Source: Perna viridis | Lineage: Eukaryota | Assembly: GCA_037379345.1 (NCBI GenBank) | Contig: CM074513.1 | Location: forward strand, 57,019,195 to 57,083,194 | Reading direction: 5' to 3' | Length of the DNA stretch: 64,000 nucleotides | Shown here: in pieces, positions 22,654 through 34,247 of the stretch | Position numbering within the stretch: position 1 is the first letter of the stretch | Layout of the letters: the number at the start of each line of letters is the position of its first letter | Notes under the pieces: generated by a model | Database searches by the model: none | Seen by the model: the letters and a program-made list of their open reading frames with translations, nothing else | What the model was told of the DNA's origin: nothing | Position numbers and translations under genes: made by a program

Positions 22654-25600
22654 CTGAAACACTCGGGTGTTTCAAGTGTACTTCCAGAAATTATGACAAT
22701 CCACAATGCGATGACACATTTATGAATTCAAACAGTTCATTTTATCAGGCTGACTGTATGGCAACTCTTGGTACCAGGAATGGATTATTCATGGCAACCC
22801 AGTGTGTCAAAATCGTTGTAGACGATGGTAAATAATCAATATTCTTAAATCAAGATACAGAATGCATTGCTTAAATACACGCACACTTGCTCAATGTTAT
22901 TCTTGATCCAAGTTGCTCTCTGTTCTCAGCCGCGGGTCCAAGTATGGGCATGCCGGGCCTAAAATTAAGATTTTTTTTGGCATGAAATTTTGATTTTTCA
23001 CAAATTCTACCCCAAAATTTTTCTTTCCTCCCTTAATTTGCTCGGCATGTTAAAATTCTATTTAAACCCCTAACATGAAAACCTCGATCCGCCCCTGGTT
23101 CCGTTTAGGGTCAGGGGACGACCATTAGATTCTTAGGAAATATTATTTCCAGCCTGATGAAAGTCAGATTATTTATTTTCACCATAACCTTAGCTAGATT
23201 ATTTATTTTACATAGTAGTCTCAAAAGGGGGATTCTACACCACCCCCTCTTTTCAAGGACAAATCCTGCATAGGACCCCCAACCCCGACGGTTAGATGAA
23301 AACGGACGGCATTTCTATTGAGCATAGGGTAAACACAAGAATTATGCTTTCGTACCAAGTGGAGACGACTTCATCAGTGAAGATGTCTTCCAGGAAAAGG
23401 TTGAAGAGCAGAGTCAGGAAGCTCTGAAAACGGAAGGACTTACCCATCGGGGTAATCTACAAGATAGAAGTGGATGGAAAGTTCGGTACGTCTAAGATCC
23501 TCACCTTGAAGGACAGACAAGGAGGGAGCACCAAAGCATGGGCTTGCCCTACGCTCAACAAAGAAAAAGATTCCTTGCAAGGAGCATACGTTCGGAGCAC
23601 GGGATTCAAAGTGAGCAAAAAGTCCAAACACGAATACCTCTCCTACGATTTGGTGAGGAAGTAAAAAAACTAACCGAGGGCTAGGGATATGGGGTTCGAA
23701 ATTTCGCAATCCAAATTACTGGATTGGGAAAATTTTTTTGGTCACTTGAGACTTTGATCTGGAGGATTCTGGAATGAGCGGGGAGCGAGGCGTAGTCGAG
23801 CGAGGCGCGATTGGAAGAATCCTCCCTATGGCGCATGCGTAGTAAGGTCTTCACTTAAAGTGGTGGTGGAAGGTTTTTGCAGCTGCTGCTTTTCGTCGTA
23901 GTAGAAGCCAAGACATTTCACAACCCCTGAAAATTCAGATTCACCGATATCATCATCCACCAGGGCTTTGCTCACTGCATCTTTGATCTTGGATTGGTTG
24001 GATCTGACGATACGCACGGTATCTTTATGCTTTTTACGCTTTTTGCGGATGCGCTTGACTAGCACCGTCAATACCACCACCACAATGGAATTCACGACGC
24101 CTAGGGAGCTCAAGGGGAGGCATGCCACTGCACCTACTCCCGTGGCGGCGGTGCTGAGGGTGCCGGTGGTGCAAATGACGTTGAGTACGGCACACGCATC
24201 CAGAGCAAAAGACACCGCTTTATCCACTCGTTTATAGGTCTTCGATAGTCGGACGTACTTATGCATTTCGGATTTGAGCTCTCGCTTGATCGATTCAATC
24301 CTAGCTTCCCTATAGGATTGCTTCTCAGAGTCTACGGAGTCCATTTATTTATACCTAGAGGAGCATGCCCAAGATGGGGATGCTTTTGAAGGGGCTATTA
24401 GGGCCTAGGATCAATCCCTTACCATCGTAGAATCGACGTCCGCTCTTCAAGTACAATCCATCGCCGTAGGTATTGGGCAAAGTGCCCGGGTTGAGATACA
24501 AGCCACGACCCTGAGGTTTCACGCAGCACACTTTTCCACCCTTATTGAGGTACATTTCGGAACCCACGGCCTTTTGGATGGCTGCACTACCCAAACCGCT
24601 CGATGCACCCACGCCCAAAGCAGGTAGCACGGTTTTGGCTAGCACGGGTAACGCAGCAGAGGCGTAACCTGCGATCACGGGGAGGAATCCACCTTCTTTC
24701 AGCACGTTATGCCTCACCTGCTTCGGACTCATCTCAAAGACCATACCACCCTTACCACTCTGCAACAGCTTGGTGATGCGCTGGATCTGGCGGTGAGTGA
24801 GGAACATTTTATGCTCACCGGATAGGTTTGCATGCAACAATCGGACGCTCACGGGGCAACCCTTCTTTGCCGCACGCTGGATCTTTCCTGCCTGACCCTT
24901 CGTCAAGTTGAGACCGTACTCTTGATAATCCATTTATTTATACCTCAGGCAGATGGAAGCGTATGGTGAGATGCTCCCCTCGCAGATCGATGGGGCGACC
25001 GTCTTGATCGGTTAGATACGTCTGCATGCGGTCGATGGTTCTCAGGGTCACGGGTAAGTAGACTAGATTCTTGGGGGTCTAGATGATCTTCATGCCAGGA
25101 TCGACCGCAGGAAAGAAGCTATAGATGGTGGACTGCTGGCTGGGTGCCGTTGACGTAACTTCCGTAGATGCTATCACTATTCACTAGGATGCTATTGATG
25201 TTGATGATATTGACGATATTCTCACCCTCCGCGTAACCGGTAGTGTCACGGTCGTAGGCATACGTCTGACGCCCAAATCCCAACACGCTGCCGTTGCTAT
25301 TTATGACGTTGAAGTCCACTTGGTAGTGCCGAGCAAGGGTCAACGTTGCTCTCAGGGTCGCACGATTGGCATCAATAAGGACCTTAGCCTTGTGCTTATT
25401 GATCCGCATCTGCCGCTGGATCTCATCGTTGATATCGTCGATACCGTAGGAGCTGGTGCTCAGCTCGACGAGAAACCAGTTAGCCCCATCATCGGGAGAG
25501 TAGCGGAAGGAATTATTACCTGCATGAATATTGGGGATGGAGTAGTAGGTCTCCAGATTCACGAGGGCCATCTCGTAAGATTTCTCCTCGCGCAGTTGGA

Positions 25601-34247: not shown

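Follow-up and report, generated by a model that had tools for sequence, protein, structure and literature searches.

The window analysed here is a 64-kb stretch of the Perna viridis genome, and its features are collected in Table 1. A Polinton fossil of 8,672 bp occupies positions 23214-31885. Its terminal inverted repeats (TIR) are 130 nt long and 87% identical (BLAST E 1e-38), 13 of the 17 mismatches are transitions, and both ends of the element carry AGTAGT when read inwards. Polinton ends are typically AGT-rich, and the target-site duplication of these elements measures 6 bp. The two flanking hexamers agree here at 5 of 6 positions, a match with a chance probability of about 1.1%. CpG decay was ruled out as the cause of the TIR differences, as only 1 of the 17 lies in a CpG context. 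The GC content is 51.6% in the element vs 32-33% in the flanks, with a sharp step, and points to a viral lineage richer in GC than its host. The element sits within an 11,160-nt intron of a host gene of the Quiver/Ly6 family that still reads open, whereas the corresponding intron of a paralogue at 16738-17696 is about 512 nt long. An earlier note on this DNA, which did not remark on the host gene, had reported TIRs with about 13% divergence, a near-duplication of the target and a GC content far above that of the host; all three were recovered, and its interval 23208..31891 is the element with its two hexamers. Because the site is intronic, the target is duplicated and both TIRs are present, the integration is real. 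With the decay described below, this makes the element, almost certainly, an integrated endogenous Polinton/adintovirus fossil, as that note had claimed.

Table 1. Features of the element and of the surrounding host gene (window positions).
Feature	Position	Strand	Basis
Host exon, Quiver/Ly6-uPAR family gene, 5' side of intron	22654..22827	+	Pfam QVR E 9e-4, below cut-off; GT donor at 22828
Left target-site hexamer TTACAT	23208..23213	.	Flank comparison
Left TIR, 130 nt, starts AGTAGT	23214..23343	+	BLAST
Small ORF at inner edge of left TIR, split by frame change	23344..23664	+	OB-fold lead only: Atlas OB_YrrC clusters 0.86
Hydrophobic-hairpin and polybasic gene, membrane-active candidate	23745..24344	-	KD19 max 2.44; Atlas unnamed Preplasmiviricota clusters 0.94
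192-aa basic core-like protein, three GxG-hydrophobic motifs	24355..24933	-	54% to L001 orthologue residues 2-192, no stops
Penton / minor capsid candidate	24938..25712	-	51-56% to L001 259-aa ORF; 69% to post-MCP part of P0008
Major capsid protein (MCP), double jelly-roll	25727..26929	-	Pfam PF21738
114-aa basic ORF, GGRG-L motif then amphipathic helix	26934..27278	-	pVI/cupiennin-like by description
Conserved core-like gene, GSG-V motif; several stops and frame changes	27290..28000	-	30-40% to L001 290-aa ORF and part of P0033
Remnants, one or two small ORFs	28000..28418	-	59% over 22 aa to P0013 residues 59-80, E 0.02
A32/FtsK packaging ATPase	28426..29188	-	52-56% to L001 257-aa ORF
Zn-ribbon (DUF5679) - PLA2 - integrase (rve) - chromodomain, single gene	29202..30400	+	Pfam, collinear fusions
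Adenain-like cysteine protease, N-terminus lost, two stops	30580..30873	-	37-39% (E 1e-16) to domains of P0034, P0089
pPolB remnant, stops and frame change	30874..31758	-	Aligns with 1,368-aa relative
Right TIR, ends ACTACT	31756..31885	-	BLAST
Right target-site hexamer TTCCAT	31886..31891	.	Flank comparison
Host last exon, same Quiver/Ly6 gene	33988..34247	+	In-phase splice to open frame; Cys pattern as paralogue 16738-17696

The element holds about 12-13 genes, some of them mere remnants. The earlier note had counted about 14 ORFs; the hallmark genes it named are present, and the lower number takes PLA2 and integrase as one gene. Two window pieces of the MCP match the Pfam double jelly-roll-like family PF21738 (E 4e-24 and 4e-17), and the protein is 85-90% identical to an intact 429-aa relative (P0001) and 76-80% identical to M. 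trossulus LOC134726736. The intact relative itself matches PF21738 at E 2e-63, and its low-confidence AF2 model (9 sequences, pLDDT 44) ranks the Sputnik, PBCV-1 and mavirus MCPs on top (E from 1e-5, TM about 0.2). The double jelly-roll proposed earlier is thus backed by Pfam and weakly by the fold of this relative. In the window the gene is broken by frame changes near 26715, 26545 (where about 21 codons are missing) and 25790, and by a stop at 26172-26174. The penton candidate fits a single jelly-roll penton in position and size; it gave no Pfam match in profile searches. Its reading frame changes once, near 25140, and its C-terminal piece has one stop. The ATPase has a frame change near 28945 and a degenerate Walker A motif; its 257-aa orthologue in the related element L001 (contig CBDDTI010000304.1) matches Pox_A32 at E 8e-10, and the window piece alone does so at E 0.007. 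When the MCP alignment and the ATPase and protease pieces were compared by sequence with the PDB, nothing relevant came up, and tblastn of the ATPase and penton pieces against a phage collection gave no match.

Among the smaller genes, the 192-aa core protein has an L001 orthologue with a weak Adeno_PX match (E 0.017). The gene at 23745..24344 is open for 172 aa and resembles GasderminX by description only, with no gasdermin Pfam match. The 231-aa L001 orthologue is 26% identical to it and the match continues through the stop to 23745; a premature stop at 23826-23828 has probably truncated the ORF. The 114-aa ORF shows a hydrophobic moment of 2.07 right after its GGRG-L motif, a weak Pfam MCPVI match (E 0.004) and 37% identity to residues 1-94 of a 155-aa L001 ORF. 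No Pfam match was obtained for the small ORF at 23344..23664, and the first remnant within 28000..28418 opens with an acidic motif that recurs where the pPolB gene starts. Disruptions occur in each of MCP, penton, ATPase, protease, integrase and pPolB, and only the 192-aa core gene could be shown to be full-length and uninterrupted. The virion gene block, earlier called complete, is so by gene presence and not by integrity.

The pPolB remnant aligns with the N-terminal third of a protein-primed polymerase, M. trossulus LOC134704824 (1,368 aa, PF03175, Alpha class). It covers residues 1-112 and 335-481 with 67-76% identity; the catalytic domain (714-1188), which would follow further downstream, is absent. 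An N-terminal OTU domain on PolB is given as an adintovirus feature in the accessible parts of two studies (Starrett 2021; Buck 2024). A large deletion joins the remnant directly to the protease. In the latter, His, Asp and Cys motifs are visible in a pattern that we take to be that of the adenain family; the piece itself has no direct Pfam or PDB match, and its relatives match Peptidase_C5 weakly in three cases out of three (E 0.014-0.09, below cut-off). At least four internal deletions, with junctions near 29650, 30874 and 31308 among them, account for at least 3.6 kb missing relative to the relatives. Since the deletion between pPolB and protease took out sequence at that point, the original gene order, announced earlier as reconstructable, can be read only in part. 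Eight adintoviruses measure 12.9-17.3 kb (bioRxiv 2026.07.28.741253). At 8.67 kb and with the polymerase catalytic domain gone, the element is a defective member and not an autonomous Polinton.

Decay affects all genes, with 22 disablements or about 1 per 100 codons, and amounts to about 4-7% per site with little CpG loss. In the MCP, nine intact relatives share 226 invariant sites, and the window departs from them at 21 (9.3%, CI 5.8-13.9), compared with 0-5% for eight of these nine relatives when each is left out in turn. The integrase branch is likewise long (0.27 vs 0.047 for its sister sequence P0168). On this comparison the decay looks neutral, without selection. A pooled tally of stops (8 in 1,203 codons) was set aside, as it counted a stop within a TIR as well as an off-frame match that a frameshift in P0008 had produced. 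The insertion had been described as old from its TIR divergence and many disablements; with a decay of about 4-7% per site, 'old' is to be read as relative. The deletions could also have preceded the insertion, the element then belonging to a non-autonomous family that retained its TIRs, was mobilised in trans and decayed further. Both TIRs indeed survive in a copy that has lost pPolB and part of its integrase, and insect Polinton-derived insertions without polB are described in the available part of a preprint (bioRxiv 2025.02.07.637071). However, no second copy was found within the 64-kb window and the disablements, spread over all genes, are as expected for decay in place, so that we consider this order of events unlikely.

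The gene at 29202..30400 matches DUF5679 (E 1e-10), PLA2 (9e-4), rve (4e-4) and Chromo (1e-8) in Pfam, and is collinear with the natural fusions P0168, P0174 and P0181. The earlier note had listed PLA2 and integrase as separate genes; they lie in one gene, together with a Zn-ribbon and a chromodomain, a point that it overlooked. The gene is disrupted by a frame change near 29430, paired frame changes near 29925 and 30020, and a stop at 30254. About 70 codons are missing near 29650, corresponding to the linker and the first catalytic Asp of the integrase, and the spacing from HD to IDxF is reduced to 42 aa vs a median of 114. The window copy thus encodes an rve integrase with a C-terminal chromodomain whose first catalytic Asp is deleted, and the C-terminal motif of its PLA2 is deleted as well. 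In the closest relative, P0168, PLA2 continues into the integrase, and PLA2, rve and chromodomain are carried by one in-frame ORF of 446 aa (13 member sequences). P0168 is the sister of the window integrase core with an SH-aLRT of 95, in a tree obtained by a quick method on 133 columns, where 29 of 64 branches are unresolved; the anchoring motif was present in 216 of 270 sequences, and after 64 short ones were discarded the other 152 were thinned to 66. Automatic labelling of these proteins put at least six that carry PLA2 under 'other', and label counts were set aside. Because the PLA2-integrase junction of the window copy is itself deleted, the ancestral state is read from P0168, and the ancestor of the window copy probably possessed a joined PLA2-integrase gene. 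That the join could be a pure deletion artefact is weakened by the natural fusions.

Such fusions are found well beyond this relative. Both PLA2 and integrase domains are present in 22 of the best 150 representatives of 50%-identity clusters, and in 112 of the 120 long matches listed (proteins of at least 348 aa), which include NCBI models from Nymphon; both searches were queried with the joined ORF, so these counts give no frequency of fused versus split genes. Hydra, assigned by sequence, is also represented among the fused proteins. Many of the fusion matches are near-copies, 58 of them sharing one linker hexamer, and the long matches are dominated by fused ORFs of 462-473 aa, whose clusters reach 365 members. 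In the AF2 model of P0168 (pLDDT 85, pTM 0.59) the domains are set apart from each other, the linkers at both motifs have low confidence, and the integrase part matches the integrases of retroviral intasomes. In the relatives of this lineage the integrase has no usual polinton N-terminal domain and forms the C-terminal part of the Zn-ribbon-PLA2 gene, in frame in many of them. In L001 it overlaps PLA2 in the +1 frame, with no AUG of its own upstream of the first catalytic Asp motif; the two frames overlap at an A-run, and a misassembly or a mutation could have produced this. A GxG motif lies within the PLA2-integrase linker in 99 of 104 sequences vs 7 expected from shuffles. In its GxG-hydrophobic form, it occurs seven times in four core-like ORFs of the window and not once in the MCP, penton and ATPase pieces, P0001 or P0012. 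The same form joins an adenain-like domain to the integrase in P0034, P0074 and P0089. At P4, the linker motif departs from the consensus of the adenovirus protease.

The ancestor might instead have had separate PLA2 and integrase genes, as in insect Mavericks, the join in the window being a by-product of deletion and the database fusions a side lineage or the result of indels in A-runs. The loss of the junction in the window copy leaves room for this, PLA2-only proteins do occur (P0051, P0058 and P0129), and in these as in L001 PLA2 ends shortly past the GxG motif. The accessible text on the Spodoptera (Sf) Mavericks (Geisler 2018, PMC5803895) gives CAP (PLA2) and INT as separate ORFs; these elements otherwise resemble ours in having PLA2, an integrase with chromodomain, an A32 ATPase, a protease and a pPolB, there with endonuclease VII. 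Against separate ancestral genes stand the fused state of the sister sequence, the consistent length of the dominant fused ORFs, and the L001 integrase frame, which without an AUG before the first catalytic motif would be hard to translate alone. We therefore judge an ancestor with separate genes to be quite improbable, and retain the joined gene.

Host co-option of the three small open ORFs (172, 192 and 114 aa), kept by selection, was dropped as very improbable: 22 random disablements miss these three in only 1% of trials, but the choice is post hoc, some gene set of equal total length being untouched in 19% of trials, and by comparison with L001 the 172-aa ORF is probably truncated and the 114-aa ORF shorter than its orthologue. 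A contaminating viral contig misassembled into host sequence, which the GC step and a left-flank repeat not directly continued in the right flank might suggest, is scarcely credible given junctions placed exactly at the AGTAGT/ACTACT ends, a 5/6 duplication (P about 0.011), genes full of stops and frame changes unlike those of a replicating virus, and a site in the intron of an open host gene.

The account that we favour, and hold with fair confidence as a whole, is that of an Alpha-PolB Polinton (adintovirus) fossil whose living ancestor made a PLA2X-integrase precursor. On this account a virus of a GC-rich lineage was inserted by its rve integrase into the Quiver/Ly6 intron with a 6-bp target duplication, after which point changes, frame changes and deletions abolished its capacity for replication, packaging and integration. 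In the living virus, the precursor would enter the virion as a core protein and be cut at the GxG linker by the viral adenain, and the particle would deliver a membrane-breaching lipase and a ready integrase, much as retroviral Gag-Pol does. Packaging and cleavage of this precursor have in our estimate an even chance of being correct. In retroviral and LTR-retrotransposon Gag-Pol, the integrase is the tail of a structural precursor, translated either in frame or after a frameshift, and the protease of the element sets it free. The element differs in belonging to a DNA virus with a cysteine protease, where a PLA2/core protein would take the place of Gag. Somewhat more tentatively, the scheme may extend to a widespread lineage of animal Polintons: the N-terminal domain of the integrase would be replaced by a virion core protein (Zn-ribbon-PLA2X or, in a few cases, adenain), giving a Gag-Pol-like precursor, in frame or through a +1 slip at an A-run, that is packaged and freed by adenain at GxG, the fossil being a deleted member of this group. 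A literature search found no earlier report of integrase co-packaging through a PLA2X precursor.

Several known elements are close to this one. The Alpha-PolB adintoviruses, in the part of their description available to us (PMC8502044), share with it the TIRs, PF03175-class pPolB relatives, an rve integrase with chromodomain, a bivalve host, the FtsK/A32 ATPase, hexon and a PLA2 domain, and their penton and adenain have candidate counterparts in the window. They differ in that PLA2X, part of the Alpha (Mayetiola-class) virion module, is there a gene of its own with a pX-like C-terminus, whereas the window PLA2 is joined to the integrase in a decayed and deleted copy. Window ORFs resemble the GasderminX and cupiennin genes of the Beta (Terrapene-class) module by description only, as far as that module is presented in the available text. 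The nearest named relatives are Mytilus proteins. Those from NCBI, which resemble the window MCP and pPolB segments at the identities given above, differ in being full-length and annotated as uncharacterized or hypothetical (predicted M. galloprovincialis proteins included), where those of the window are broken. L001 has orthologues, at 26-65% identity, of the ATPase, penton, 192-aa core, TM gene, 290-aa core, amphipathic ORF, MCP, ZnR-PLA2, integrase and pPolB, and its ATPase and ZnR-PLA2-integrase are also placed head to head. It differs by a GC content of 40%, uninterrupted virion genes, the +1 frame of its integrase over PLA2, and a swapped order of the penton-core-TM and core-amphipathic-MCP blocks.

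Polinton fossils are common in bivalves and this one is in itself ordinary, so that its rarity had been overstated. The part of Starrett et al. 2021 (PMC8502044) at hand already lists a 'Mytilus mussel' Alpha adintovirus, with its map in Suppl. Fig. S2A, and a 2025 preprint, likewise in the part at hand, gives a total of 107,631 viral regions for the genomes of bivalves, with 58.5% assigned to Orthopolintovirales. The Mytilus map may already show a PLA2-integrase fusion. Taken alone, one more decayed Polinton in a host group rich in them is of little consequence. The joined PLA2X-integrase gene is relevant to how integrase is delivered to the incoming genome and to access to the germline; if the precursor model is true, an incoming particle could integrate its genome before expressing any gene. 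Polinton particles have, to our knowledge, rarely been characterised, and a precursor whose cleavage motif and, for some members, frame overlap are defined leads to concrete predictions. Where annotation treats PLA2X and integrase as two hallmark genes, it mislabels this lineage.

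The Zn-ribbon (DUF5679), PLA2, integrase (rve) and chromodomain parts of the element are encoded by one gene. The earlier note had taken PLA2 and integrase as separate ORFs, which did not hold: the ORF at 29414-30010 joins PLA2 and the integrase core in a single frame, and the best match, the naturally fused P0168 (PLA2+rve+chromo; 13 members; 71% identical), aligns collinearly with 29295-30397; a quick tree places it as sister to the window integrase core, with support 95. A deletion artefact was the first reading of this join; natural fusions in relatives speak against it. Both domains are present in 22 of the best 150 of 5,430 matches (50%-identity representatives), and of the 120 matches listed out of 469 (proteins of at least 348 aa), 112 have PLA2 and rve by Pfam and a Zn-ribbon lies at the N-terminus of 83. 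Both the query and the length cut-off favour fusions in these counts, which include many near-copies. The PLA2 HD motif lies 42 aa from the integrase IDxF motif in the window, and the median over 110 relatives is 114; therefore about 70 codons are gone here, and with them the linker and the integrase's first catalytic Asp. Fused integrases lack the N-terminal segment of canonical integrases, and PLA2 occupies that place. Relatives show the integrase encoded downstream of the PLA2 gene, continuous or overlapping, and the four-part gene, a variant architecture, has many representatives in sequence databases.

In its accessible parts, Starrett 2021 (PMC8502044) defines Alpha and Beta PolB, describes PLA2X as a gene and, in the Suppl. 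Fig. S2 text, places 'Mytilus mussel' among Alpha contigs; 'fus' is absent from the accessible main text, and drawn maps, slides and sequence files may show the fusion. PLA2-integrase fusion is likewise undescribed in the accessible sections of PMC11131425, PMC3671162, PMC5803895, PMC4642659, PMC11161782, PMC11071296, PMC13215967, PMC11296320, PMC10294476 and bioRxiv 2026.10.13.758929, 2025.02.07.637071 and 2026.07.28.741253. No report was found in the literature searched, which covered few subscription papers and leaves absence unproven.

The linker between PLA2 and integrase carries a GxG motif in 99 of 104 proteins (7 expected from shuffles). Four core-like window ORFs contain GxG followed by a hydrophobic residue, with seven occurrences in all; none was found in the MCP, penton and ATPase pieces, in P0001 (an intact MCP relative) or in P0012 (a pPolB relative). 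Confidence of the P0168 model (pLDDT 85) drops at both linkers; the fold matches listed include foamy-virus and RSV integrases, for its integrase part, and no PLA2 structure. In P0034, P0074 and P0089 an adenain-like domain is joined N-terminally to the integrase via a GxG motif; these could be genuine fusions or artefacts of gene calling. In the related Polinton locus L001 (contig CBDDTI010000304.1), the Zn-ribbon-PLA2 ORF ends 14 residues past the GxG motif. At an A-run the integrase overlaps this ORF, shifted by +1, with no AUG ahead of its first catalytic motif; the overlap reflects either programmed slippage or else a mutation or homopolymer error. The PLA2-only proteins P0051, P0058 and P0129 end much like L001, just past a Lys run after the GxG motif. 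By eye, at the protein level, their tails resemble an off-frame integrase start in the same +1 relation.

The joined gene has a testable Gag-Pol-like explanation, in which the integrase would be made as the tail of a precursor. The PLA2 part would be a virion protein breaching membranes during entry, a role proposed for Polinton lipases in the accessible text of Yutin et al. 2015 (PMC4642659) and likewise of Starrett et al. 2021 (PMC8502044). The fusion would carry the integrase into the particle, and adenain might free it at GxG. Adenains cut after glycine-rich motifs; the P4 residue of the linker motif departs from the adenovirus protease consensus. Packaging of the integrase and its cleavage at GxG could about equally hold or fail.

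The element is genuine, a defective Polinton of the Alpha-PolB class, and its kind is common in bivalves, in whose genomes 107,631 viral regions were counted, 58.5% of them Orthopolintovirales (bioRxiv 2025.04.19.649669, accessible part). The Polinton/adintovirus identity proposed in the earlier note was largely right, as TIRs, target duplication, MCP, ATPase, integrase and pPolB remnant indicate, and its TIRs, near-TSD and higher GC than the host were all recovered. The GC island (23214-31885, 8,672 bp) has 51.6% GC versus 32-33% in the flanks; the TIRs differ at 17 of 130 nt (13 transitions), and the flanking hexamers TTACAT and TTCCAT agree at 5 of 6 positions (chance about 1.1%). Further copies were not found within the 64-kb window. 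The gene order starts at the left TIR (table).

Features of the element, its flanks and locus L001 (window positions unless L001)
Feature	Strand	Position	Remark
Left inverted repeat		23214-23343	130 nt; AGTAGT end
Small ORF beside left TIR	+		OB-fold a lead only
Hydrophobic-hairpin (TM) gene	-		next after small ORF
192-aa basic core-like gene	-		after hairpin gene
Penton candidate	-		between 192-aa gene and MCP
MCP	-		after penton candidate; Pfam DJR-like
114-aa amphipathic ORF	-		after MCP
Conserved core-like gene	-		after amphipathic ORF
Small remnants	-		between conserved core-like gene and ATPase
ATPase	-		last of first minus-strand block
Zn-ribbon-to-chromodomain single gene	+	29202-30400	after ATPase
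Candidate protease, then pPolB remnant	-		final genes before right TIR
Right inverted repeat		31756-31885	130 nt; ACTACT end
MITE-like host repeat portions		23113-23213 and 33310-33525	flank element
Start-codon motif	-	24340-24351, 24929-24940, 25708-25719, 29184-29195	four viral genes
Terminal gene starts	+ and -	23296-23346 (+), 31803-31753 (-)	inner TIR edges, facing inward
L001 ends		2318-2323, 11493-11498	ACTACT-type
L001, further feature		11552-12685	

Two MCP pieces match Pfam DJR-like (E 4e-24 and 4e-17), in agreement with a double jelly-roll; they are 85-90% identical to P0001 (429 aa) and 76-80% to M. trossulus LOC134726736. The element's nearest named proteins come from Mytilus trossulus, M. 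galloprovincialis and M. edulis and, together with base composition, make a mytilid mussel the probable host. Top fold matches of the P0001 model (pLDDT 44, poor) are the capsid proteins of Sputnik, PBCV-1 and mavirus, at TM ~0.2; the model is weakly consistent with that capsid fold. The truncated minus-strand gene beside the pPolB remnant is, on indirect grounds only, a candidate protease. A short ORF follows it in the same frame (30403-30580, -) and overlaps no known family. The claimed pPolB remnant was confirmed: it covers residues 1-112 and 335-481 of a 1,368-aa PF03175 polymerase, lacks the catalytic domain (714-1188) and adjoins the truncated protease directly. Its N-terminal part includes about 34 codons (31470-31580) without counterpart in the relatives P0012 or P0013. 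Both a small internal ORF (28353-28418, -) and the pPolB gene (31575-31643, -) open with an acidic motif and then Cys/His pairs; such starts may be a candidate match to Starrett's 'Oncoid' class.

Of the complete virion gene block claimed, MCP, penton candidate, ATPase, putative protease, PLA2 and integrase are present; 22 stops and frame changes were counted over about 2,050 codons in eight genes of the element (tallied from alignments). Versus the nearest relatives the element lacks at least 3.6 kb of coding sequence, therefore the original was at least 12.3 kb. Of 68 candidate stretches in the genome collection one proved related, L001. Its orthologues of the amphipathic ORF, MCP, TM gene and a 290-aa gene are free of interruptions, as are those of the ATPase (52-56% identical; Pox_A32 E 8e-10), 192-aa gene (54% across its full length) and penton candidate (51-56%). 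The two ACTACT-type ends of L001 share one orientation and pPolB lies past the first, which suggests tandem or nested copies. This eukaryotic Polinton adjoins a GIY-YIG/RT-like ORF on a contig filed as a bacterial MAG, probably through host contamination.

Nine intact relatives share 226 invariant MCP positions, of which 21 are changed in the window (9.3%, CI 5.8-13.9%), similar to the 12.6% at variable positions; left out in turn, eight of the nine relatives show 0-5% and the most distant 13%. By neutral simulation, 9% amino-acid change corresponds to about 4-5% per nucleotide, and TIR divergence gives 3.9-10% per copy. Both clocks roughly converge on 4-7% decay, a relative figure rather than one in years; the 'old' proposed for the insertion is likewise relative. 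The observed/expected ratio of CpG is 0.95 for the element, 0.44-0.73 for the remaining intron, 0.23-0.50 for the flanks and 1.08 for L001; the insert seems weakly methylated, because little CpG was lost despite several percent decay.

A GT-AG intron (22828-33987) contains the element; splicing of its bordering exons keeps the phase and gives an open reading frame of Quiver/Ly6 type. The corresponding intron of a paralogue is about 512 nt. A DDE integrase inserted the element with a short target duplication, and neutral-looking decay then left a dead copy. The element interrupts a MITE-like host repeat, and either side shows inverted ends of 23 nt and tandem units of 30-33 nt. About 1.4 kb of repeat-like host DNA (31892-33309) separates the right hexamer from the resumed units, so it is the hexamers and the host gene that argue for flank continuity. 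Upstream lie this second Quiver paralogue (16738-17696, +) and a Schlafen-family gene with a long exon (3921-9608, +; AlbA_2, GTPase-like and helicase domains).

The motif TARATAAATGGA spans four viral start codons and has five window matches versus 0.22 expected, the pattern being drawn from these same sites. It looks like a shared promoter or initiator candidate, and presumably resembles the poxvirus late TAAATG. The terminal genes begin at the inner TIR edges and M. galloprovincialis gene models start within the TIR, which may hold a candidate promoter for both.
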